From IMG/VR virus record IMGVR_UViG_3300024255_000004: a stretch of DNA of 64,000 bases; one strand, written 5' to 3'. The position numbers and the translations under genes are program-made. Each line of letters starts with the position of its first letter. Positions within the stretch are counted from its first letter, which is position 1. Below are positions 7,637-59,096 of this stretch, in pieces. The stretch comes from a virus. The notes under the pieces are model-generated. The model searched no databases, had not been told where the DNA came from, and saw only the letters and a program-made list of their open reading frames with translations.

Positions 7637-9230
7637 ACCCACAAACGAAGGTTATCTTGGTAATAATCTAATCAAAAGAGCTGGAATCGAAACCCAGTAT
7701 ACCAAAAAACAAATGGAAGAATACTTGAAGTGTTCTGAAAATCCTGCTCATTTTATAGAAAATTACACACAAATCATATCACTAGACGAAGGTATGGTTC
7801 CCTTTACACTTCGTGGATATCAAGAAAACCTAATCAACCATTATAATGACAATCGTTTCAATGTGGTTCTTGCAAGTAGACAGAGTGGTAAATCAATTAC
7901 TTCTTGTGCATATTTGTTGTGGTTTCTATTATTTAAACCCGAAGTCACTGTAGCAGTTCTTGCTAACAAAGGTGCAATTGCAAGAGAAATGATTGCACGT
8001 ATTGTCACCATGTTAGAGTCTGTTCCATTCTTTTTACAGCCAGGAGTCAAGATTCTAAACAAAGGGTCAATAGAATTTGCAAATGATAGTAAAGTCGTTG
8101 CAGCTGCAACTTCTTCAAGTTCAATTCGTGGACTTTCAATCAACCTACTATACTTAGACGAGTTTGCATTCGTAGACGATGCAGAGACATTCTATACTGC
8201 AACATATCCCGTTGTGACCTCGGGTAAAGACTCTAAGGTTATTATTACTTCCACTGCAAATGGTGTAGGTAATATGTTTCATAAGATATATGAATCTGCA
8301 GTTCATAGTCAATCAGAATATAAATCCTTTCTTATCAACTGGTATGACGTGCCAGGCAGAGACGAAGAGTGGAAGAAAGAAACTATTGCAAACACCTCAG
8401 AAGCACAATTCGAACAAGAGTATGGGAACTCATTCTTAGGAACTGGTAATACACTTATTAACTCTAATACACTATTAGGTATGAGAGCGTTAGAACCCGA
8501 CTGGAATAGAGACAACTTATTCCTTTATGAGAAACCATTAGAGGGTCATAGATACGTTTGCACAGTAGACGTATCCAAAGGTAGGGGGTTAGATTACTCT
8601 TCGTTTACAATTATAGACGTGACTACAAGTCCCTTTAAACAAGTATGCACATATAGAGATAACATGATAAGTCCCCTTCTCTTCCCCGATATTATAAATA
8701 AATATGTTAAACATTATAATGAACCAGTCGTTATTATAGAAAATAATGCAGAGGGTGGAATGGTTGCAACACAACTACATTACGAGATAGAATATCCGAA
8801 TGTATTTGTTCAAGGTCAACTAAAAGCCGAAGACATAGGTGTGACCATGTCTAGAAAGATTAAGAGAATCGGTTGTTCTACACTTAAAGAATTATTAGAA
8901 GAAAATAGACTTATTCTGAATGACAGACATACTATTACAGAACTTATGACTTTTGTTCATAAGGGTAATAGTTGGGAAGCAGATAGAGGATATAATGACG
9001 ATATGGTCATGAATTTGGTATTATTCAGTTGGTTTGTGACCACTGCATACTTTGAACATTTAACCGATACACAAGTTAAAGATTTATTGTATTCAGAACA
9101 ACAGAGGTTAATCGAAGACGATTTATTACCAGCTGGTATATTTGACGGGGAGTCTCAGTCAGATACCTTCGTAGATAGTGAAGGAGACCGATGGTTTCAC
9201 AAAAGTATGGATATACCAATTAAATTATAG
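7629..9230 (+). CDS. gp17: Terminase large subunit gp17
   Basis: Walker A SRQSGKS, Walker B YLDEFAF, TSTANG, and nuclease motifs VDVSKG...DYS and NDDMVM. Confidence 0.97.
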   Translation: MVKPTNEGYLGNNLIKRAGIETQYTKKQMEEYLKCSENPAHFIENYTQIISLDEGMVPFTLRGYQENLINHYNDNRFNVVLASRQSGKSITSCAYLLWFLLFKPEVTVAVLANKGAIAREMIARIVTMLESVPFFLQPGVKILNKGSIEFANDSKVVAAATSSSSIRGLSINLLYLDEFAFVDDAETFYTATYPVVTSGKDSKVIITSTANGVGNMFHKIYESAVHSQSEYKSFLINWYDVPGRDEEWKKETIANTSEAQFEQEYGNSFLGTGNTLINSNTLLGMRALEPDWNRDNLFLYEKPLEGHRYVCTVDVSKGRGLDYSSFTIIDVTTSPFKQVCTYRDNMISPLLFPDIINKYVKHYNEPVVIIENNAEGGMVATQLHYEIEYPNVFVQGQLKAEDIGVTMSRKIKRIGCSTLKELLEENRLILNDRHTITELMTFVHKGNSWEADRGYNDDMVMNLVLFSWFVTTAYFEHLTDTQVKDLLYSEQQRLIEDDLLPAGIFDGESQSDTFVDSEGDRWFHKSMDIPIKL

Positions 9231-9249
9231 TTGTTGGGTTTTTAAAAGT

Positions 9250-9257
9250 TATAAATA
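9250..9257 (+). promoter_or_regulatory. T4-type late promoter TATAAATA
   Basis: Consensus upstream of gp18. Confidence 0.8.
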
Positions 9258-9296
9258 AAACAGTAAACAACTTTTTACATTAACAGGAGTAAAAGT

Positions 9297-11285
9297 ATGG
9301 CATTTCAAGTATCACCAGGCGTTCAGGTCTCCGAGATAGACCTGACTAATGTTGTCCCAGCCGTTTCATCGACTACAGGTGCATTTGCTGGACATTTCCA
9401 ATGGGGCCCTGTTGGTGAAGTAATAACAGTTTCAGATTCTAAGGGTTTAGTTGATAATTTTTATCAACCAGCTAATTCCGACGCTGGAGCAGAGGACTTC
9501 TATTCAGCGGAATCATTTCTAAAATATGGTTCATCACTTAGAGTGGTTAGAATCAACACATCTCAATTAAACAATGCAAACTCATCAAGTGGAACTGCAT
9601 TACTTAAAAACAATGACGAATATGTCAATACTTATCAAGATGGTTCTCAAAACGGAACTGTAGGTAATTATGTTGCAAAATACGCAGGTTCTTTAGGTAA
9701 TTCATTAAAGGTTTCAGTATGTGGGTCTGCAAATGCATATTTCAACGATGCAGTGACAACAGTCACAGGAACAGAGTCAGTGGGTCAAACAACTATAACA
9801 GTTGGTGATTCATCAGGTATGTTCGTAAGAGACATCGTGAGATTTGCTGGACATAACAACGAATACAGAGTATTGACGATTCCTGATGGAACTTCAATTA
9901 CTATCGAAGCACTTGGTCAACCAAGTGGAACAGGTCTATTAACTGCCGTCACAGGTGGTGCTAACGTAGATAGATACTGGGAATTTTATAATTCATTTGA
10001 TAAAGCACCTGCTAAGTCAGGAACAGCAACAGCTGCTGGTGGTTCAGATGATGAAATTCATGTTGTTGTATCAGACCAAGACGGATTATTCAGTGGAGTT
10101 AAAGACACAATTTTAGAATCATATGGATTCGTATCACTTGCGTCAGACTCTAAAGATGGTCAAGGTCAATCAAATTACTACAAAAACGTTATTGCAAGAG
10201 AATCAGACTACATTTACTGGTCAGGTCATTCAACAGACCTACTTACAACTGCAAACGAAACAAGAACTCATTTACAATCTGCAACGACTCCATTCGGTAG
10301 ACCTTCTGCAGTTATCACTTCATCACTTGCTGGTGGAGTTGACGGAAGAGTTCCTACTGCTGGTGAGAAATATGGTGCATACCAAACTCACTTCGGTGAT
10401 GCAGAAACAATAGACGTATCATTCTTAATTGCTGGTTCAACAAGAACTGATAACGGAAGTGGTGTCGAACAAGATATTCTTGCAGACCATAACACAATCG
10501 TTAATCAACTTATTGCAACTGCAGAAGGAAGAAAAGATTGTATGGTTATAGTTTCACCTAGACGTGCAAGTGTCGTAGGTGTATCAAGTGAATCTACACA
10601 ATCAACTAACGTGATTGCAGACTACGCATTAGTCACATCAAGTTCATATGTTGTATTAGACAGTGGTTGGGTATACCAATACGATAGATACAACGACAAA
10701 TACTGCTACGTGCCCTCTAATGGACACACAGCAGGTATAATGGCAAGGTCAGACTTATTAAGAGACCCATGGTTCTCACCTGCTGGTTTCTCAAGAGGTC
10801 AATACTTAGGTATAACTAAACTTGCGTTTAACCCTTCACAATCATCAAGAGATGACTTATATCGTGCAAGGATTAATCCAGTTGTGACATTTGCTGGACA
10901 AGGAACAGTATTATTTGGAGACAAAACAGGTCTTACAAGTCCTTCAGCATTCGATAGAATCAATGTCAGAAGGTTATTCATAGTCTTAGAAAAAGCAATC
11001 GCAGTTGCAGCGAAATCACAACTCTTTGAATTCAACGATGCATTCACAAGAGCTCAATTCCGTGCTGCTGTAGAACCTTTCCTAAGAGATGTTAAAAATA
11101 GAAGAGGTCTAGTAGATTTCTCAGTATTATGTGATGAAACTAACAACACTGATACAGTTATAGATAGAAATGAATTTGTTTGTTCTATCTTCGTGAAACC
11201 TGCTAGAAGTATTAATTTTATTACTTTAAACTTTGTTGCTGCTAGAAGTGGTGTTCAGTTTGAAGAAATATACAGTGCAGTTTAA
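9297..11285 (+). CDS. gp18: Tail sheath protein gp18
   Basis: SPGVQVSEIDLT, FQWGP, PWFSPAGFSRG and FDRINVRRLF. Confidence 0.97.
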   Translation: MAFQVSPGVQVSEIDLTNVVPAVSSTTGAFAGHFQWGPVGEVITVSDSKGLVDNFYQPANSDAGAEDFYSAESFLKYGSSLRVVRINTSQLNNANSSSGTALLKNNDEYVNTYQDGSQNGTVGNYVAKYAGSLGNSLKVSVCGSANAYFNDAVTTVTGTESVGQTTITVGDSSGMFVRDIVRFAGHNNEYRVLTIPDGTSITIEALGQPSGTGLLTAVTGGANVDRYWEFYNSFDKAPAKSGTATAAGGSDDEIHVVVSDQDGLFSGVKDTILESYGFVSLASDSKDGQGQSNYYKNVIARESDYIYWSGHSTDLLTTANETRTHLQSATTPFGRPSAVITSSLAGGVDGRVPTAGEKYGAYQTHFGDAETIDVSFLIAGSTRTDNGSGVEQDILADHNTIVNQLIATAEGRKDCMVIVSPRRASVVGVSSESTQSTNVIADYALVTSSSYVVLDSGWVYQYDRYNDKYCYVPSNGHTAGIMARSDLLRDPWFSPAGFSRGQYLGITKLAFNPSQSSRDDLYRARINPVVTFAGQGTVLFGDKTGLTSPSAFDRINVRRLFIVLEKAIAVAAKSQLFEFNDAFTRAQFRAAVEPFLRDVKNRRGLVDFSVLCDETNNTDTVIDRNEFVCSIFVKPARSINFITLNFVAARSGVQFEEIYSAV

Positions 11286-11295
11286 GGAGAAATAA

Positions 11296-11793
11296 ATGGC
11301 AACTATAGACCAATTTAAAGCACAACTTATCGGTGGAGGCCCACGTGCTAACCGATTTAAAGTTTTTATACCAAGAGCTGGTAATAAGATTGAGTTCTTA
11401 TGTAAAGCTGCTAATATCCCTGCGGGAACGTTGGGAGAAGTGGTAGTTCCTTTCAGAGGACACAACCTTAAACTTGCTGGAGAAAGAACTTTCGAAGATT
11501 GGCAGATTACAGTTATCAACGATGTTGAGTTCTCAGTAAGAAGTGGTCTAGAAGCATGGCAGGAAGAAATTCAAGCTATGGATAGTGGAGTAGGTTCAAC
11601 ATCTACAGATTATCTTATATCTAGAGCATTCGTAGAACAATTAAACAAAGATGACTCAGTCCTTGCGAGATACGAGTTTTTCAACATGTTCCCAAAAAAT
11701 ATTGGTGCAATCGAACTATCTTACGATACTGTTGATGCATTAGAGGAATTTACTGTTGACTTTACTTTCTCTCACTGGGAAAGAGTTCAGTAG
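11296..11793 (+). CDS. gp19: Tail tube protein gp19
   Basis: GGGPRANRF, LAGERTFEDW and EEFTVDF; follows gp18. Confidence 0.95.
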   Translation: MATIDQFKAQLIGGGPRANRFKVFIPRAGNKIEFLCKAANIPAGTLGEVVVPFRGHNLKLAGERTFEDWQITVINDVEFSVRSGLEAWQEEIQAMDSGVGSTSTDYLISRAFVEQLNKDDSVLARYEFFNMFPKNIGAIELSYDTVDALEEFTVDFTFSHWERVQ

Positions 11794-11828
11794 TCTTTAA
11801 AGTGAAGAATTACCACACATTTTGGTGG

Positions 11829-11836
11829 TATAAATA
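11829..11836 (+). promoter_or_regulatory. T4-type late promoter TATAAATA
   Basis: Consensus 5 nt before the gp20 ATG. Confidence 0.8.
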
Positions 11837-11841
11837 TTAGT

Positions 11842-13380
11842 ATGGAAATTTTAGGGTTTGAAATAAATCGTAAGAAAAACGATTTAAGAACGATAGAAGA
11901 CAAGAATCAAACGTCTTTTGTCCCACCAGTTGACGATGACGGGACTCCCGTCATTGAACAACAGAGTGGTTTTGTATCGGGAGCAGCCTATGGGTCGTTT
12001 GTCGATATGGAAGGCGGTGTCAAGAATGAGGCAGAACTTATTCGAAGATACCGAGAAACGTCTTTGGTGCCAGAGTGTGACTCTGCAATCGAAGACATAG
12101 TTAATGAGTGTATCACATCTGACACATCAGATAAGATAGTATCACTCGACCTCAGAGACGTTAAACTCTCTGATAGTATCAAGAAAAAGATACAAGAAGA
12201 GTTTAATCACATCTTATCTCTAATGAAGTTCAATCAGAACTCTCATGAATTGTTCAGAAAATGGTATGTCGATGGAAGAATTTACTTCCATAAAGTCGTT
12301 GACTCAAAAAGACCTAAATTAGGTCTAGTTGACTTAAGAAATGTTGACCCGATTAAAATTAAGAAGGTTAGAAACATTGAGAAGAAAAAGGGTGCCGACA
12401 AAATTGATAGAATTTCTAAAATAGAAGAGTTCTATCTCTTTAACGACAAAGGATTTGATAAATCCACTGCAACAGAAGGACATGTTGTAAGAATTGCACC
12501 TGAAGCTGTATGTTATACAACTTCGGGATTACTTGACTACACTAAAAACGTAGTCATTGGGTATCTGCATAAAGCATTGAAGACTGCAAATCAGTTATCA
12601 ATGTTGGAAGATGCACTTGTTATTTACAGAATATCACGTGCTCCCGAAAGAAGAATTTTCTACATTGACGTAGGAAACCTTCCAAAAGCAAAAGCAGAAC
12701 AGTATCTTGCAGACGTTATGAACCGATATAAGAACAAATTGGTTTACAATGCAGATACAGGGGAAATCAAAGACGATAGAAAACATATGAGTATGTTGGA
12801 AGATTTTTGGTTGCCTCGTAGAGAAGGTGGTAGAGGAACAGAAATTACTACACTGCCTGGTGGACAGAATTTAGATGATATTGCAGATATAGAATACTTT
12901 AAGAAGAAACTATATCAATCACTAAACGTCCCTGCCTCTAGAATGGAATCAGACAACGGATTCAATATGGGTCGTGCGTCTGAAATTTCTAGAGACGAAC
13001 TTAAATTTAATAAGTTCACAAACAGACTTCAGAAGAAGTTTGCAAGAGTTTTTACAGATATTCTTAAGACACAATTAGTTCTTAAGGAAATCACAACTGG
13101 AGATGAATTTGATAATATCAAAGACTTTCTTCAGTATGACTTTGCAACCGACAACCATTTTACAGAGTTGAAGGATGCAGAGATAATAAGAGAGAGATTA
13201 GATACTCTCTCAAATATTTCCGACTATGTTGGAGAGTATTTTTCTAAGGAATATGTTAGAAAATACATTCTAAGACAGACGGAAGAAGACATTAAATTAA
13301 TAGACTCACAAATCTCAAAAGAAGGAGATAGTGGTGAGGACAATGAAGGAAGTGATAGTAATGACTTCGGAGGATTTTAA
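11842..13380 (+). CDS. gp20: Portal protein gp20
   Basis: YRISRAPERRIFYIDVGNLPK and EDFWLPRREGGRGTEITTLPGG. Confidence 0.97.
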   Translation: MEILGFEINRKKNDLRTIEDKNQTSFVPPVDDDGTPVIEQQSGFVSGAAYGSFVDMEGGVKNEAELIRRYRETSLVPECDSAIEDIVNECITSDTSDKIVSLDLRDVKLSDSIKKKIQEEFNHILSLMKFNQNSHELFRKWYVDGRIYFHKVVDSKRPKLGLVDLRNVDPIKIKKVRNIEKKKGADKIDRISKIEEFYLFNDKGFDKSTATEGHVVRIAPEAVCYTTSGLLDYTKNVVIGYLHKALKTANQLSMLEDALVIYRISRAPERRIFYIDVGNLPKAKAEQYLADVMNRYKNKLVYNADTGEIKDDRKHMSMLEDFWLPRREGGRGTEITTLPGGQNLDDIADIEYFKKKLYQSLNVPASRMESDNGFNMGRASEISRDELKFNKFTNRLQKKFARVFTDILKTQLVLKEITTGDEFDNIKDFLQYDFATDNHFTELKDAEIIRERLDTLSNISDYVGEYFSKEYVRKYILRQTEEDIKLIDSQISKEGDSGEDNEGSDSNDFGGF

Positions 13381-13568: not shown

Positions 13569-13874
13569 ATGAAATCCTTTGCAGAAATCACTGTTGAGTT
13601 AAACGAAGCAAAGTTTAAATTGCCTCGTGGACATAAAGAACTCAAGAGAGATGTTGTAAAAATAGGTGGTAAGGATATAGTAATCACTTACACTGAATAT
13701 CGAGGTAAAGTTCATGTCTACATAGACGGACAAAGTTTCGGTGGTGCAACATACAAAGATTTAAAATCTGCTGAGAAAGAAATGAAATCCATGAAGGAAG
13801 TTATTAAAACAATGTCGGAAGAAGAAAATATAGACATAGAGGAAATTTTCAATGAAATTAATATCAGAGTTTAA
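13569..13874 (+). CDS. Prohead core/internal protein (gp68 position)
   Basis: Lies between the gp67-like gene and gp21; N-terminus MKSFAEI...LNE-A resembles a capsid-targeting leader. Confidence 0.55.
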   Translation: MKSFAEITVELNEAKFKLPRGHKELKRDVVKIGGKDIVITYTEYRGKVHVYIDGQSFGGATYKDLKSAEKEMKSMKEVIKTMSEEENIDIEEIFNEINIRV

Positions 13875-50064: not shown

Positions 50065-50487
50065 ATGGCATATAGTAATAAAGTAGTAGAGAGATTCGAA
50101 GACGTTTTAAATAACCCTAAGAAACATGGTGTTGGTAGATTCGACCCCAATGACCCTAATGTTGCAACAGGACTAACGGGTGCTCCAGCATGTGGAGACG
50201 TTATGAAATTGGATATAAAAATAAATCCCGATACTGATGTTATTGAAGATGTTAAGTTTAAAACATATGGTTGTGGAAGTGCAATTGCAAGTTCGTCTCT
50301 TTTCGTAGACATGTTAACGGGAAAGACTATTGAAGAAGCAAGTCAGATAAAAGACAAAGAGATTGCAGAAGCCTTAGAACTTCCCCCAATAAAATTGCAC
50401 TGCAGTGTTCTTGCAGAAGACTCTATTAGAAAAGCAATTCAAGATTGGTCAGAAAAAACCGCACATAGGAAACATAATTATGTATGA
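50065..50487 (+). CDS. iscU: Fe-S cluster scaffold IscU
   Basis: GAPACGDVM, FKTYGCGSAIASS and LPPIKLHCSVLAE. Confidence 0.95.
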   Translation: MAYSNKVVERFEDVLNNPKKHGVGRFDPNDPNVATGLTGAPACGDVMKLDIKINPDTDVIEDVKFKTYGCGSAIASSSLFVDMLTGKTIEEASQIKDKEIAEALELPPIKLHCSVLAEDSIRKAIQDWSEKTAHRKHNYV

Positions 50488-50941
50488 GTATAAAGTTAAA
50501 GTAGTCAAAGTTGTAGATGGAGACACTATTGATGTGGATATCGATTTAGGTTTCGGTATGGTCTATAAAAAACAAAGAGTCCGAATGGTTGGAATCGATA
50601 CGCCAGAATCTAGAACTAGAGACAAAGTAGAAAAACTATTTGGTAAAGCTTCTAAAAAACACTTAAAGAAATTACTAGAAGAATGTGAAACTGTATCACT
50701 TGTATCACATGACAAAGGTAAGTTCGGAAGAATCTTAGGAACACTATATGCACATCATGTAGAAGGACACCCTGTATTCGGACACAAAGTAGATATCAAT
50801 ACTCAAATGATTAAAGATTGTCATGCAGTAGTTTATAGTGGAGAGAATAAAGACTTGGTTGAACAACAACATTTAGATAACAGAAAATTTGTTATGGACA
50901 ATGGATATGTGACCCAAGAGGATATAGATAAGGTATCATGA
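50480..50941 (+). CDS. Thermonuclease (SNase) family protein
   Basis: VVDGDTID, RMVGIDTPES and KGKFGRILG. Confidence 0.9.
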   Translation: MYEYKVKVVKVVDGDTIDVDIDLGFGMVYKKQRVRMVGIDTPESRTRDKVEKLFGKASKKHLKKLLEECETVSLVSHDKGKFGRILGTLYAHHVEGHPVFGHKVDINTQMIKDCHAVVYSGENKDLVEQQHLDNRKFVMDNGYVTQEDIDKVS

Positions 50942-54276: not shown

Positions 54277-54336
54277 TAAACAAAAAAATACCATAAATAG
54301 TAGTAATACCACCAAGAATGTGGTATAATTACTATT

Positions 54337-55539
54337 ATGGGTGCAAAAAATCTACATTTAGAACACTTAGAAGACGAGATTATCAATCAAGGGATTGATG
54401 GTGGTCGTGGTGCTATAAACTTTTTACAGGGTCTTAGAGACATGTTAAAAGGAAACTCTAATTCAAGTGTTAATATGACTGTTAAGTGGGACGGAGCTCC
54501 TGCTATTTTCTGTGGTCAACACCCCGAAACTAATCAATTCTTTGTTGCAAAGAAATCTCTATTCAATAAAGAACCTAAGTTTTACACTTCAGAACATGAA
54601 ATTAAAAATGCAGACGAACTAAGTGGTGCATTAAAAGAAAAGTTCTTAACTTCATTTCAATGTTTATCTAAACTATCTTGGAATACAATCATGCAAGGTG
54701 ATTTAATGTATACCAATGATAAGAAAATGCAAAAGATTGACGGAAAATCATTCGTCACATTCCAACCAAATACAATCATGTATGCAGTAGATATTAATTC
54801 AGATTTAGGTAAAGAGATTGCAAACTCTAAAATGGGTATTGTGTTTCATACCACATACACTGGTTCTACAATAGAAGACTTGGGTGCAAGTTTTGGTGCA
54901 AACATATCTAAACTAGGAAACAGTAAAGATGTTTGGATTGACGATGCAACATATAAAGATGTCAGTGGTAAAGGTTCAATGACTGCAAAAGAAACACTTA
55001 CACTTACACAAGAACTATCCAAAACAGGTAAAGCCTTCCACGGAATCAAAAAGAAAGATTTAGATAAGTTCCAAAAAATACAGGAAGAGATTGGAAAGAA
55101 AGGTGCTGGTGCATCTTACAAAACATATTGTAATACACTTATCAGAGGTGGTAGTTTCAATCCAACATACAAAGGATATATGGAACACTTCGAAAGCTAC
55201 TGGAGAGATAAGGTGGTTGCAAAGGTCAAAATGGAAAAGACCAAACAAATCAAACAAGAGATTGGTGAACAACTTTATAACGAACTCAGAAGTTTAAAGA
55301 ACATGATAACTAATCTAACTTCCTTTATGGGACACCTAGTAGTTGCAAAACAACTTATCATAAATGCACTAAATAGAGTAAAGAGTATAGGAACTTTCAA
55401 AAAGACTGCAAATGGTTTTGAGGTAGTAAACCCCGAAGGATACGTTGCAATCGATAAAACAGGAAGTGCAGTTAAACTTGTAGACAGAATGGAGTTTGCA
55501 TTCAATAACTTCACTGCACAAAAATCATGGGACAAGTAA
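54337..55539 (+). CDS. Conserved T4-like protein (DUF6267-like) with ligase-type nucleotidyltransferase motifs
   Basis: HLEHLED, TVKWDG (motif I), QGDL, PEGYV (motif IV) and VKLVDR (motif V). Confidence 0.7.
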   Translation: MGAKNLHLEHLEDEIINQGIDGGRGAINFLQGLRDMLKGNSNSSVNMTVKWDGAPAIFCGQHPETNQFFVAKKSLFNKEPKFYTSEHEIKNADELSGALKEKFLTSFQCLSKLSWNTIMQGDLMYTNDKKMQKIDGKSFVTFQPNTIMYAVDINSDLGKEIANSKMGIVFHTTYTGSTIEDLGASFGANISKLGNSKDVWIDDATYKDVSGKGSMTAKETLTLTQELSKTGKAFHGIKKKDLDKFQKIQEEIGKKGAGASYKTYCNTLIRGGSFNPTYKGYMEHFESYWRDKVVAKVKMEKTKQIKQEIGEQLYNELRSLKNMITNLTSFMGHLVVAKQLIINALNRVKSIGTFKKTANGFEVVNPEGYVAIDKTGSAVKLVDRMEFAFNNFTAQKSWDK

Positions 55540-56948
55540 TGAAATCATTCAATGCATTTCTAACAGAAGCTAAAGATAAGGGTGTAGTGTTTACTTTTGG
55601 TAGATTCAATCCACCTACAACAGGTCATGGAAAGTTAGTAGACAAACTTAAAAAACAATCGGGTGGTGATGACGTTCTGTTATTCACTTCACATTCAAAT
55701 GACAAGGTTAAAAATCCACTATCACACCGAGACAAGATATCGTATCTAAGAAAATTCTTTGGGAAGATTGTTGCAGACGTAAATGCAAGAACAGTATTTG
55801 AGATTGCAACAGAATTACATAAGAAGAAATATAAAAGAGTCTCAATGGTTGTTGGGTCAGACAGAGTAAAAGAGTTTGAAACACTACTAAACAAATACAA
55901 TGGTGTTAAAGCACGTCATGGATTCTATAAGTTCGAAGAGATTAATATTGTATCTGCTGGAGAGAGAGACCCTGATGCAGATGATGTCAGTGGAATGTCT
56001 GCAAGTAAACTCAGAGGATATGCAGAACAAGGAGACTTTGACAATTTCAAATTAGGTGTTCCAACAAAGAATAAAGGATTAGTTCAGAAACTTTATAACG
56101 ATATCCGTAAAGGAATGGGTATTGCAGAAGGAACACTACCACACTACATGGTAGAAGATTTGATACAAGAAGGAGTCTATGACCCAGGCACTTTCAAAGC
56201 AGTTTTCCTAAGTGGTGGGCCAGGCAGTGGTAAATCTGCAGTTGTAAAGAAATTAGGTTTGACTGCACTTGGTTTAAAAATGGTCAACACTGATAAAGCA
56301 TTTGAGAACGGACTAAAGAAAGCAGGAATGTCACTTGACCTTAGAGGTGCAGACTTTGATAAAGTAGACCCTATCCGTGCAAAAGCAAAAAGTATTACAG
56401 GTAAAAACTTAGATGCATATATCGATGGAAGACTAGGTCTTATCTTTGACACTACAAGTGCAAAGTCGGGTAAGATTAAGAACTACAAAAAAATGTTAGA
56501 CACATTAGGATATGAATACAAAATGATATTTGTTAATGCAAGTCTAGACAATGCACAAAAAAGAAATGACTTAAGGTCTAGAAAACTACCACCCAAAATT
56601 GTAAAAGGTGACTGGGACGCTGCACAAAAGAATGCAACGGAATATAAATCAATTTTTGGTAGAGACTTTGTAGAGATTAAGAATGATGATGACATTGCAA
56701 GTCTTGATAAAAAGGCAAATTCACTATACAGTAAACTACTAGGTTGGTCTACTTCATTCCCTAAAAACAAAATTGCAATGAAATGGAAATCTTACGAACT
56801 GATGAAGAAGACTCTTGGGTATTCATCTATGAGAAGTAAAGATGCGGTGAAAAAACCACCAACAGATAAACCAAGTCCGTTTGGGTCAAATTTAAAAACA
56901 TTCAAAAGTAGAAGGACTGGTAAGAAGACAGTAATCGGAAAGATATAA
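55539..56948 (+). CDS. HxGH cytidylyltransferase-like domain fused to a P-loop kinase
   Basis: Leader MKSFNAFLTE; FGRFNPPTTGH, VVGSDR and MSASKLR; then GGPGSGKS, IFDTT and RN..RSR. Confidence 0.85.
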   Translation: MKSFNAFLTEAKDKGVVFTFGRFNPPTTGHGKLVDKLKKQSGGDDVLLFTSHSNDKVKNPLSHRDKISYLRKFFGKIVADVNARTVFEIATELHKKKYKRVSMVVGSDRVKEFETLLNKYNGVKARHGFYKFEEINIVSAGERDPDADDVSGMSASKLRGYAEQGDFDNFKLGVPTKNKGLVQKLYNDIRKGMGIAEGTLPHYMVEDLIQEGVYDPGTFKAVFLSGGPGSGKSAVVKKLGLTALGLKMVNTDKAFENGLKKAGMSLDLRGADFDKVDPIRAKAKSITGKNLDAYIDGRLGLIFDTTSAKSGKIKNYKKMLDTLGYEYKMIFVNASLDNAQKRNDLRSRKLPPKIVKGDWDAAQKNATEYKSIFGRDFVEIKNDDDIASLDKKANSLYSKLLGWSTSFPKNKIAMKWKSYELMKKTLGYSSMRSKDAVKKPPTDKPSPFGSNLKTFKSRRTGKKTVIGKI

Positions 56949-56956
56949 ATAGTATT

Positions 56957-58432
56957 ATGTTAGAAGAACTTAGAGAAAAATTACGTAAGACCCAACAAGA
57001 CAAAGAAGTTGAAGGCAAGAAAGGTTCTCAACCTAAGAAGTATTATGCTAAAGACGCAGACGGAGACGAAATGTCTCAGTCTACAAAAGATAAACGTGCA
57101 GACCACTTTAAGAATAATAAAGATAAAGAAGGTGAAGATGCATTTAAACCAGCACCTGGCGATTCAAAAGCAGATACTAAACCTTCACAACATACTAAGA
57201 AGTATAAGAAAATGTTTGGAGAAGGTGCAGCTGATAAATCTCTACAAAAGAAAGCAGACAAGAGTGGAATGCCAGTTGGTATTCTAAAACAAGTCTACAA
57301 ACGTGGAGTTGCAGCTTGGAAAGGTGGACATAGGCCAGGAACTACACCCGAACAATGGGGACATGCACGTGTTAATTCTTTTGTGACTAAATCCAGTGGA
57401 ACATGGGGTGGTGCAGACCAAGACCTTGCAAAGAAAGTTTCGGGTAAATCAGAGTCAATAGAAGAAGGAATTGATATCAGAAAACAACTCAAAAAGATTA
57501 AAGGATTAACTAAGAAACAATTAGAAACATTATCAACAATGAACACTTCACAACTAACAGTTTTAGTTCAACAGTTAAGTGGTTTGGTTATGGGTGAACA
57601 AGACGAGTTAGAAGAAAGATATGCAGATAGACTAAGAGACAAAAATAAGTCTCAACAAAAGGCACATCAAAAAAGAATGATGAAGTCTGCAAAAAAATCT
57701 ATCAAAGACTATGATGCAAAGAATAAGAACAAGAACGAAGAGTCTGAAGTAGAAGAAGGTAAACTTGTCACTGATTACAGAAGTGTCTTAGATTTCATAT
57801 TTAAAAATATCAAAAAGATGATTGAAAAGGAATATGAAAAGAACTCTGAAAAAGGTTTAGGAATGATTAATCAGTTAGGTTCTTATGTTGGAATGAAAGT
57901 CACTGATAAGAAACAGGAGAAAAATAGACTCTTCCTTAAGTTTGGTGACAACATACAAGAAGACGCTACAGTTGACGCTGCAAATCTAAAAGCAAAACAA
58001 ACTGAAGAACTAGAAAGATTAAAGGCAAAACAATTACAAGAGTTAGAAGCACTACAAGATAGACACGAAAGAGAAACAGACAAAGTCAATCAACAGAAAG
58101 AAAAAGAAGCTGCAAATAAACAAATTCAAGCAAAACGTGATGCAGATAGAAAAGCTGCAGAGAAACAAAACGAAGAAAGAGATTACAAAAAAGAGTATGA
58201 GAACTACCACTCAGACCCCGAACAAATTAAAAGACGTGCAAAAAGAAATGAAGCACGAAGAAGTCTAAAGGACAGAAAAGGTATAAAAGGAAAGGACGTT
58301 CACCATAAGGACAACAATCCTATGAATAATGACAAGTCTAACTTATCAATTGTATCACAAAAATACAATAGAACAGAACCAAGACTTAGAAAATTGAAAG
58401 AGAAGGGGATACTTCCAAGTGGCAGGAAATAA
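56957..58432 (+). CDS. Modular Lys/Glu-rich late protein with a C-terminal HNH motif
   Basis: Late promoter at 56944; module VYKRGVAAW..HRPG..QWGHARVNSF; C-terminal DVHHKDNNPMNN..NL....YNR. Confidence 0.75.
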   Translation: MLEELREKLRKTQQDKEVEGKKGSQPKKYYAKDADGDEMSQSTKDKRADHFKNNKDKEGEDAFKPAPGDSKADTKPSQHTKKYKKMFGEGAADKSLQKKADKSGMPVGILKQVYKRGVAAWKGGHRPGTTPEQWGHARVNSFVTKSSGTWGGADQDLAKKVSGKSESIEEGIDIRKQLKKIKGLTKKQLETLSTMNTSQLTVLVQQLSGLVMGEQDELEERYADRLRDKNKSQQKAHQKRMMKSAKKSIKDYDAKNKNKNEESEVEEGKLVTDYRSVLDFIFKNIKKMIEKEYEKNSEKGLGMINQLGSYVGMKVTDKKQEKNRLFLKFGDNIQEDATVDAANLKAKQTEELERLKAKQLQELEALQDRHERETDKVNQQKEKEAANKQIQAKRDADRKAAEKQNEERDYKKEYENYHSDPEQIKRRAKRNEARRSLKDRKGIKGKDVHHKDNNPMNNDKSNLSIVSQKYNRTEPRLRKLKEKGILPSGRK

Positions 58433-59096
58433 ACACGACAACGGAGTTCACGAACAGGGAACAGACGAAACAGTAAAAGCATATCAAGAAGATACGCCTG
58501 GTCAATCAGTTGAGAAATACGTAAAAGAGAATCAAAAATCATATCACGATTCAAAGAAAACATTTTCTCAAATTGCAATCAACGAAACACTCGATACACT
58601 TCAAAAAGAAAAAACCAATCTACTAGACAATCCATTTCGTTTAGGTTCTATGATGTATTTTGAATGTATTAATGAAGCAAGAAACCTTATCAAAGAAGAC
58701 CGATACAGACTTACTGAAGTTGATAAGAATATAATGGAAACAGATATTGGTGAGTTCGAAGTGTATGAGGGAGAATTAGTTCCACTAGATTGTCCACAAT
58801 ATGAGTTTATAAACGAAGAAGAAGAACCCGAACTCAACAAACCAAAAGCAGGTGGCCCTAAGAAATACTATGTATATGTTAGAGACCCACAAACTAAAAA
58901 GATTAAAAAAGTCACATGGGGAGACACTACAGGTCTCAAAGTGAAACTCGGAAACGAGAAAGCAAGAAAATCCTTCGCTGCACGACATAAGTGTTCACAA
59001 CAGAAAGATAAAACTACTGCATCATATTGGGCATGTAGATTACCTTACTATGCAAAACAGTTAGGTCTATCAGACGGGGGAAATTTTTATTGGTAA
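58419..59096 (+). CDS. Modular late protein
   Basis: GTG start; FRLGS...VPLDCP module and KKYYVYV...RKSFAARHKC...YWAC module. Confidence 0.7.
   Translation: MAGNKHDNGVHEQGTDETVKAYQEDTPGQSVEKYVKENQKSYHDSKKTFSQIAINETLDTLQKEKTNLLDNPFRLGSMMYFECINEARNLIKEDRYRLTEVDKNIMETDIGEFEVYEGELVPLDCPQYEFINEEEEPELNKPKAGGPKKYYVYVRDPQTKKIKKVTWGDTTGLKVKLGNEKARKSFAARHKCSQQKDKTTASYWACRLPYYAKQLGLSDGGNFYW

Follow-up and report, generated by a model that had tools for sequence, protein, structure and literature searches.

What do the two overlapping genes at positions 54337-56948 of the viral DNA IMGVR_UViG_3300024255_000004 encode, and which task do they share? The window analyzed here is the whole stretch of 64,000 nucleotides (nt), part of a T4-like marine myovirus genome. 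The first gene, open reading frame 1 (ORF1), encodes a protein of the family DUF6267, and the second, ORF2, combines a nicotinamide mononucleotide (NMN) adenylyltransferase (NMNAT)-like domain with a kinase domain. The best explanation of our data is that ORF1 and ORF2 form the conserved core of a cargo/enzyme module of marine T4-like myoviruses. For ORF1 the structural model supports a ligase-type covalent nucleotidyltransferase fold with catalytic-type residues; for ORF2 the comparisons support an NMNAT-like transferase and a polynucleotide kinase (PNK)/zeta-like kinase. The more specific reading, a late-made and largely capsid-delivered module for break repair and adenylate supply, has in our judgment an even chance of being correct. 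The parts of the two genes are as follows; in protein sequences a slash marks a candidate cleavage position.

54337-55539, plus strand: ORF1, a DUF6267 protein of 400 amino acids (aa), predicted ligase-type covalent nucleotidyltransferase
54484-54495, plus strand: motif I (KWDG) of ORF1; Lys50, the predicted nucleotidyl-accepting lysine, ends strand 46-50 of the model
54985-55371, plus strand: block of helices (aa 217-345, about 129 aa) inserted into ORF1 between motifs IIIa and IV, from six helices in the model and the motif spacing
55435-55488, plus strand: motifs IV (EGYV, E367) and V (AVKLVDR, K380, R384) of ORF1; invariant columns, strands 368-372 and 378-382
55539-56948, plus strand: ORF2, with leader, NMNAT-like transferase, I-x-E linker, PNK-like kinase and basic tail
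55539-55568, plus strand: leader MKSFNAFLTE of ORF2, candidate capsid-targeting sequence (CTS) ending in L-x-E, from its likeness to the T4 CTS
55575-56129, plus strand: NMNAT-like HxGH nucleotidyltransferase domain (aa 13-197), from Pfam, PHROG and fold
56121-56186, plus strand: linker with IAE/G and IQE/G, candidate prohead-protease sites, from conservation of the boundary Glu and a predicted local distance difference test score (pLDDT) of 53-73
56187-56846, plus strand: PNK/zeta-type P-loop kinase domain (aa 217-436), from Pfam and fold
56847-56948, plus strand: basic disordered C-terminal tail of ORF2 and stop codon; pLDDT below 50 for aa 443-469, not in the aligned homologues

Fold and conservation of the DUF6267 protein

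ORF1 is a full-length member of the Pfam family DUF6267 (PF19782; E 1.4e-102) and also belongs to phrog_455. At least 8,000 close relatives were found in one search, with 2,575 representatives at 50% identity, and a protein cluster search, in which ORF1 matched DUF6267 clusters only, found the family in viruses only. A preliminary description of the locus had reported covalent nucleotidyltransferase motifs in the correct order, and this holds: KWDG is located at aa 50-53, QGDL at 120-123, EGYV at 367-370 and VKLV at 379-382. In an alignment of 58 sequences with 33-70% identity the residues H7, H10, K50, D52, G53, G60, P63, K73, D122 and Y149 are invariant, as are G167, H171, N266, K338, E367, G368, V370, K380, R384, F387 and N391 in the second half of the protein. 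These columns take in all previously named positions of motifs I, III, IV and V together with a IIIa-like aromatic residue. Owing to this invariance the motifs can be regarded as conserved features of the family and not as chance strings.

The AlphaFold (AF2) model of ORF1 has a pLDDT of 92.3 and a predicted template modeling score of 0.88. A comparison with Rnl1 and Rnl2, as suggested in the preliminary description, revealed a ligase-type fold. For this we used VIA-align, which is independent of Foldseek, against 48,161 representative chains, followed by a second look at the best entries. Ranks 1-8 were occupied by RNA ligases, with archaeal Rnl3 and DNA ligases next. The Z scores were 8.4-8.6 for NgrRnl (184 aa), 7.7 for Trl1-LIG, 7.4 for T4 Rnl2, 6.7 for Rnl1 and 6.6 for REL1, and the top RNA ligase matches together span Z 8.6-6.5 over 163-191 aa. 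Polynucleotide ligases made up 46 of the 50 best entries in the second look, and the non-ligase rows of the search cover the helical part alone. D122, Y149, E367/G368 and K380 are all located on predicted beta-strands, in the canonical order of motifs III, IIIa, IV and V.

The distance between motifs IIIa and IV is 219 aa in ORF1 versus 88 aa in T4 Rnl2, and elsewhere the spacing matches; the difference is explained by the six-helix block 217-345 of the model. An OB-fold domain is absent from this model: apart from the nucleotidyltransferase core it contains only the inserted helices, and no more than 20 aa follow motif V. Judged by the predicted structure, the family is a new and highly divergent branch of the lysine nucleotidyltransferases with an internal helical domain and without an OB domain.

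Domains, leader and linkage of the partner gene

The start of ORF2 was placed at 55539 and not at the upstream ATG at 55527, because the homologues begin with MK[ST]F. With this start the stop codon TAA of ORF1 (55537-55539) overlaps the ATG of ORF2 (55539-55541) in the string TAATG. The model of ORF2 (pLDDT 85.7) comprises two domains with a low-confidence linker between them. The characteristic motifs are TTGH (aa 27-30) and MSASKLR (153-159), the linker sites IAE/G (195-198) and IQE/G (209-212), and GGPGSGKS (226-233).

The transferase domain matches Pfam CTP_transf_like with 26.1 bits at a cut-off of 21. Among the PHROG profiles, phrog_3041 and phrog_395, both annotated as 'cytidyltransferase', match with E values of 1e-60 and 6e-47, and phrog_3462, an NMNAT family, was also found. 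By fold the domain is closest to NadM (VIA-align Z 13.0), NaMNATs (12.8-12.5) and the NMNAT of M. jannaschii (12.7), followed by PPAT with 11.7. The sequences GRFNPPTxGH, GSDR, SAGxRDPD and GxSxSKxR are kept at 95% or more in the homologues, and the SAGxRDPD loop is specific for this family. The kinase domain shows a near tie in Pfam between Zeta_toxin (E 1.1e-7) and AAA_33 (E 1.4e-7). Its best VIA-align matches are PSTK (Z 16.3) and Pnkp of C. thermocellum (16.2), with T4 Pnk (14.1), zeta toxin (13.8) and UMP kinase (13.2) behind them and still lower scores for Pnkp1 (12.9), other nucleotide kinases (about 13) and Trl1-KIN (11.3). In 21 kinases the Walker A motif (226-233), D252, R280, D304 and T306 (DxT), R346 and R348 are kept at 95% or more. 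When the whole of ORF2 was compared using Foldseek, the best match was NadR, which covers both domains (1lw7, E 1.2e-6, about 430 columns).

The internal proteins of T4 carry a CTS of 10 residues, MKTYQEFIAE (PMC8442874). The prohead protease removes it with a single cut, after which the cargo remains in the head, as do foreign proteins that bear a fused CTS (PMC8442874; PMC3012670). ORF2 begins with MKSFNAFLTE/AKDKG, which shows 4 identical and 5 conservative positions in comparison with this CTS. The leader is disordered in the model and conserved across the transferase homologues, one of which begins with MKTYQRFMTE. The pattern M..[FYLMW]..[FYILMW][LIMVFA].[EDQ] occurs at a single one of 465 Met positions in long plus-strand ORFs of the window, and this position is the start of ORF2. 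The window also encodes a T4-type portal, scaffold and major capsid protein as well as a gp21-type prohead protease (phrog_207, E 3e-77), and the major capsid protein contains the sequence TLAE/AA. With such a capsid-type tag on ORF2, its enzymes are probably injected with the DNA.

Similar leaders are present in related phages. The strict pattern MxxFxxFLxE just before KNxHLEH was found in 16 of 51 DUF6267 homologues, and by eye about 16 more carry looser L/I-x-E variants; the DUF6267 protein of Stenotrophomonas phage DLP6 bears the leader, too. Dozens of ORFs of unassigned role near DUF6267 in related loci begin in the same style. In three of these loci the gene just 5' of DUF6267 (L001:4887-5972, which is Melnitz gene 15; L048:3625; L062:896) bears the leader MQGFKTFLSE/AK, and these genes share a KAEDYEAA segment and may represent a further cargo family. 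In the window itself a small ORF at 13569-13874 (plus strand), which lies between the portal and prohead protease genes where T4 has its core proteins gp67/gp68, begins with MKSFAEITVELNE/AK. This leader is of the ORF2 style; the ORF has no PHROG match, and its match to DUF5798 is sub-threshold.

At the end of the transferase domain [LIVM]-x-E is found in 40 of 44 homologues, and E197 is conserved at 95% or more in spite of the flexible linker. Simply counting [LI]xE sites was rejected as evidence for a polyprotein, since a rough estimate from residue frequencies gives about 5-6 chance sites in a protein of the size of ORF2; only the conserved I-x-E at the boundary was used as evidence for a protease site. 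NMNAT-like/cytidylyltransferase proteins have been detected in the virion proteomes of the cyanophages S-SCSM1, S-CBWM1 and S-CREM2, in S-CREM2 together with the products of the next two ORFs after the transferase (PMC9602691; PMC10665884). By analogy with these virions and with T4, ORF2 itself would be packaged and cleaved.

The linkage of the genes was analyzed in 79 IMG/VR loci with a relative of ORF1, 32 of which have enough flanking sequence; a partner was counted if located within 5 kb downstream of DUF6267 on the same strand. The transferase was found in 31 of the 32 loci, the phrog_7595 domain in 22, DUF5824 in 20 and the kinase in 14. Furthermore, the domains are fused in several orders: DUF6267+transferase+DUF5824, DUF6267+transferase, transferase+DUF6267, phrog_7595+DUF6267 (P0141) and DUF6267+transferase+RimK+RimB-like. 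The soil phage DLP6 of Stenotrophomonas has also kept the pair of DUF6267 and transferase, at a long distance from its replication genes. The last of these fusions, on contig L094 (positions 8001-11978; Logan SRR24319181), encodes 1,325 aa with DUF6267, transferase, a RimK-type ATP-grasp domain and a RimB-like Zn protease. It directly follows genes for DnaB, an Rnl2-type RNA ligase and an HNH protein, and a NAMPT gene is located 7 kb away.

Most of what the preliminary description had said about ORF2 thus stands: the TAATG coupling to ORF1, the leader resembling a capsid-targeting peptide, the HxGH domain of NMNAT type, the two linker sites and the PNK/zeta-like kinase with GGPGSGKS were all recovered, and the proposed linkage of the two genes is conserved.

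Proposed function and rival explanations

The predicted folds point to adenylate chemistry at the ends of nucleic acids. Break repair is favored by the RNA ligases as best matches of ORF1 and by the PNK-clade kinase as a frequent partner. The substrates of all three enzymes and the biological purpose are inferred. Lys50 of ORF1 would be adenylylated and the AMP passed to a 5'-phosphate end, which would then be joined to a 3'-OH. ORF2 would be made as a polyprotein from the overlapping TAATG start; its leader would direct it to the core of the prohead and there be cut off after Glu10 by the gp21-type protease. The protease would probably cut the linker at IAE/G and IQE/G as well and so free the NMNAT-like adenylyltransferase and the PNK-like kinase, both of which would be kept in the head until they pass into the cell together with the DNA. 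Their likely job would be the mending of nucleic-acid ends early in infection: the kinase would phosphorylate 5'-OH ends, the ligase-like ORF1 would seal them, and the NMNAT-like enzyme would supply or recycle the adenylate donor (NAD+ from NMN and ATP).

Several results weigh against this reading. Concerning ORF1, no known ligase family of Pfam was matched (PF01068, PF01653, PF09414, PF09511), DUF6267 being the only hit; no ligase was among the sequence matches to PDB chains, neither in a phmmer search with the single sequence nor in a profile search; hhalign of the DUF6267 family profile with T4 Rnl2 gave a probability of 0.1; Foldseek with the ORF1 model found no match in the PDB at E <= 1e-3; and a VIA-align Z of about 8 is 'middling' on the tool's own scale. 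In the case of ORF2, the NMNAT/NadR models of NCBIfam reached 14-23 bits at cut-offs of 112-341 (equivalog 23 versus 341), and PPAT is only about 1.3 Z behind the best NMNAT-type match. The kinase fits small-molecule kinases too (zeta toxin Z 13.8, AvrRxo1-type 12.7), and fewer than half of the related loci encode it. ORF1 of the window bears no capsid leader and may for this reason not be packaged with ORF2 here; a longer ORF1 with a hidden leader is excluded by the in-frame stop codon at 54304-54306, 11 codons upstream. The virion detections mentioned above rest on few peptides, and their authors allow for carry-over (PMC9602691; PMC10665884).

Further counter-evidence concerns the healing of 3' ends. 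No 3'-phosphoesterase was present among the neighboring genes of the window. In five related complete genomes the 2H family PF13563 was found in 0/5, and the HAD-type family PF08645 gave nothing above the cut-off and one sub-threshold match in DLP6, other esterase families not being searched. As neither a 2H nor a HAD-type 3'-end-healing enzyme was found, the full repair of breaks with a 2',3'-cyclic phosphate is unaccounted for. A complete heal-and-seal set like that of T4 is weakened as a model by the lack of a 2H or PNK3P-type esterase among the neighbors and in the five genomes. The preliminary description had read the two genes as a counter-defense set for RNA repair, NAD+ rebuilding or nucleotide signal synthesis, partly delivered from the capsid. 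The ligase fold, the NMNAT-like and PNK-like domains, the leader, the conserved I-x-E, the linkage and the homologues in cyanophage virions support this reading in part, a counter-defense role being conjectural; the 3'-phosphoesterase not found and the leaderless ORF1 speak against a heal-and-seal set of the classic T4 kind.

The same domains could serve NAD+ economy. NAD+-using ligases release NMN, which is the substrate of NMNAT, and the motifs GRFNPPTxGH and GSDR...F of ORF2 resemble those of NMNATs. A NadR-like ORF2, whose kinase would convert nicotinamide riboside to NMN and whose transferase would produce NAD+ from NMN and ATP, would keep ligation from stalling, either in phage DNA synthesis or under NAD-depleting defenses; in this case either DUF6267 would be a ligase that uses NAD+, or NMN from the NAD+-dependent LigA of the host would be recycled by the transferase. 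That NadR is the top Foldseek match across both domains in the same order fits this explanation, as do the weak match to nadR_NMN_Atrans, the NMNAT profile phrog_3462 and the many proteins in which ligase-like and NMNAT-like domains are fused. However, the ORF2 kinase is nearer to the PNK clade, no NadR chain is among the VIA-align top 50, the transferase misses the NMNAT cut-offs, and DUF6267 has no recognizable NMN-binding module of the domain-Ia type. The NAMPT gene lies close to the L094 fusion and is present in DLP6, but it was not found in 4 of 5 related genomes. A salvage pair of NAMPT and NMNAT that would include the transferase is weakened by this occurrence in only 1/5. A NAD role has been proposed by the authors of the proteome studies (PMC9602691; PMC10665884); as an explanation for the whole module we consider it unlikely.

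In cyanomyoviruses homologues of g30 and rnh were not found, and distant ones may remain unidentified (PMC2984593, 2010). In cyanomyovirus-like phages (Kyanoviridae) the 'missing' replicative DNA ligase might be DUF6267, which would seal Okazaki fragments. Its gene is syntenic with those of DNA polymerase (gp43), UvsX and gp41 in the window, Syn1, P-TIM40, HTVC008M and Melnitz, and PF01068, PF01653 and PF09414 had 0 matches in the complete genomes of Melnitz, Syn1, HTVC008M and P-TIM40; as a positive control, the PF01068 search recovered the ligase of DLP6. On the other side, DUF6267 occurs together with a gp30-type ligase in DLP6 and with one of Rnl2 type in contig L094, a coexistence that also weakens the idea of a simple gp30 replacement, and in DLP6 the pair is not near the replication genes. 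The ORF1 model has no OB domain and is nearer to RNA ligases (Z 8.6-6.6) than to DNA ligases (6.4-5.5), the capsid leader on many DUF6267 homologues is odd for a replisome enzyme, and the constant partner is the transferase and not a replication protein, so that we regard a replicative role as improbable. It is also conceivable that ORF1 joins no strands and is a tagging enzyme, which would add an AMP cap to a 5'-phosphate RNA or DNA end or transfer a nucleotide to a protein or small molecule for end protection, signaling or interference with host defense, the donor coming from the neighboring transferase. Motif V has a single lysine (AVKLVDR versus AIKCK in Rnl2), neither an OB nor an Rnl2-type C-terminal domain is present, the family-specific invariant residues H7, H10, H171, N266 and K338 have no assigned role, and known repair systems show no coupling this tight with a second nucleotidyltransferase. 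Since none of the five ligase motifs is lost, true strand-joining enzymes are the nearest in structure and a PNK-like kinase is a frequent partner, we consider tagging very improbable.

Genomic setting and comparison with known systems

Judged by ORF1, the closest isolates are Methylophilales phage Melnitz (53% identity) and Pelagibacter phage HTVC008M (44%), followed by hundreds of Synechococcus and Prochlorococcus myoviruses, all of them Kyanoviridae-like. Directly upstream of ORF1 and ORF2 the window encodes a family-B DNA polymerase, a UvsX-like recombinase and a DnaB/gp41-type helicase. Two plus-strand genes are located between the DNA polymerase and the UvsX-like gene, one for an IscU/NifU_N-type Fe-S scaffold protein (50065-50487, E 1e-41) and one for a staphylococcal-nuclease-like protein (50405-50941, E 1e-13). 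The ORF directly upstream of ORF1 has 145 aa and is unrelated to the leader-bearing gene at this place in the relatives. The remaining features around the gene pair are:

54292-54300, plus strand: possible late promoter of the CATAAATA type, 37-45 nt before ORF1, from a consensus match only
54306-54326, plus strand: 7-bp stem-loop between the upstream ORF and the start of ORF1, from a terminator-like scan
56944-56951, plus strand: TATAAATA, perfect T4-type late promoter consensus, 13 nt before ORF3
56957-58432, plus strand: ORF3, with DUF5824 (aa 61-156, E 2.2e-18), a charged coiled middle part and an HNH_3-like end
58419-59096, plus strand: ORF4, with a C-terminal phrog_7595 domain (E 2.4e-11), a further module partner

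The C-terminal end of ORF3 matches HNH_3 below the Pfam cut-off (E 3e-4) and belongs to phrog_4590. A protein cluster search with the DUF5824 part gave no match. In the relatives the pieces of ORF3 are distributed over ORFs in varying combinations, often in fusion with the transferase, and the profile phrog_3041 covers transferase and DUF5824 together.

The window contains 15 copies of TATAAATA, none of them on the minus strand, compared with 5.6 expected on both strands; 9 of the 15 sites, which include 4499, 9250, 11829, 14508, 36866, 43812, 56944 and 59730, are located at most 60 nt upstream of an ORF start. These sites look like a working set of T4-type late promoters. The variant [ACG]ATAAATA is present in 11 copies on the plus and 2 on the minus strand, several of them just upstream of ORFs. 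A sigma-70 promoter scan around ORF1 and ORF2 gave no signal above shuffled sequences. The stem-loop at 54306-54326 abuts the ribosome-binding region of ORF1 and overlaps an extended -10-like string, TGgTATAAT.

The virion association of the transferase and its NMNAT likeness are already known. In the literature that we searched we found no paper naming DUF6267, and neither its ligase fold nor T4-type leaders on these enzymes nor the conserved protease-type boundary were described there. Genome sequences of cyanophages, pelagiphages and methylophages contain DUF6267 and the partner transferase in hundreds of cases, metagenomes add thousands of clusters, and DUF6267 has so far been annotated only as 'hypothetical'. 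Its assignment to the ligase superfamily is a concrete claim that biochemistry could test cheaply, and it bears on a gap noted since 2010, that cyanomyoviruses have no recognizable ligase (PMC2984593). It is possible, though on balance doubtful, that in the surface ocean the most common myoviruses pack a DUF6267 ligase, an NMNAT-like and often a PNK-like enzyme by means of a T4-type peptide and inject them with the genome. If this is true, strand-break repair fueled by locally made NAD+/adenylate would be ready before phage gene expression, and such an ejected set of enzymes would be new in kind; it could also be the long-sought ligase activity of cyanomyoviruses. The data suggest that T4-style injection of enzymes is widespread in the ocean.

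Among known proteins, ORF1 shares the nucleotidyltransferase fold with Rnl5 (Naegleria NgrRnl, PDB 5cot) and T4 Rnl2 (2hvq), with Z scores of 8.6 and 7.4 over about 180 aa. The motifs of T4 Rnl2 and ORF1 can be paired as EKIHGTN/VKWDGAP, VFGEF/MQGDL, FYVFDI/MYAVDI, EGYVLK/EGYVAI and AIKCK/AVKLV (here the slash separates the two proteins), and both have an N-terminal LE(N/H)H element at residue 7-8. In contrast to these ligases, whose additional domains are appended N- or C-terminally, ORF1 has its helical domain inside the catalytic domain. It differs further in the lack of detectable sequence homology, in KWDGAP as motif I, in the single lysine of motif V and in the capsid leader that many DUF6267 members bear. 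With NadR (1lw7, NMN adenylyltransferase and ribosylnicotinamide kinase) ORF2 has the order of HxGH transferase and P-loop kinase in common, whereas it has no helix-turn-helix domain, reaches TM-scores of only 0.24-0.31 and misses the NCBIfam cut-off by far; its kinase is closer to PNK and PSTK, and it has a leader and a linker with protease sites in addition.

The proposed packaging resembles that of the T4 internal proteins IPI-III and other CTS cargo in the 10-residue leader pattern ending in (L/I)-x-E, in the gp21-type protease and scaffold encoded in the same genome and, in related phages, in a variable neighborhood with many leader-bearing small ORFs. IPI-III are small basic inhibitor proteins, whereas the predicted cargo here consists of large enzymes. 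With T4 Pnkp and Rnl1, bacterial Pnkp/Hen1 and fungal Trl1 (LIG-KIN-CPD) the module shares a ligase-type enzyme coupled to a PNK-clade kinase. Unlike these repair systems, the module has an NMNAT-like transferase instead of the healing esterase and a kinase that not all relatives possess, and its delivery from the capsid is predicted.

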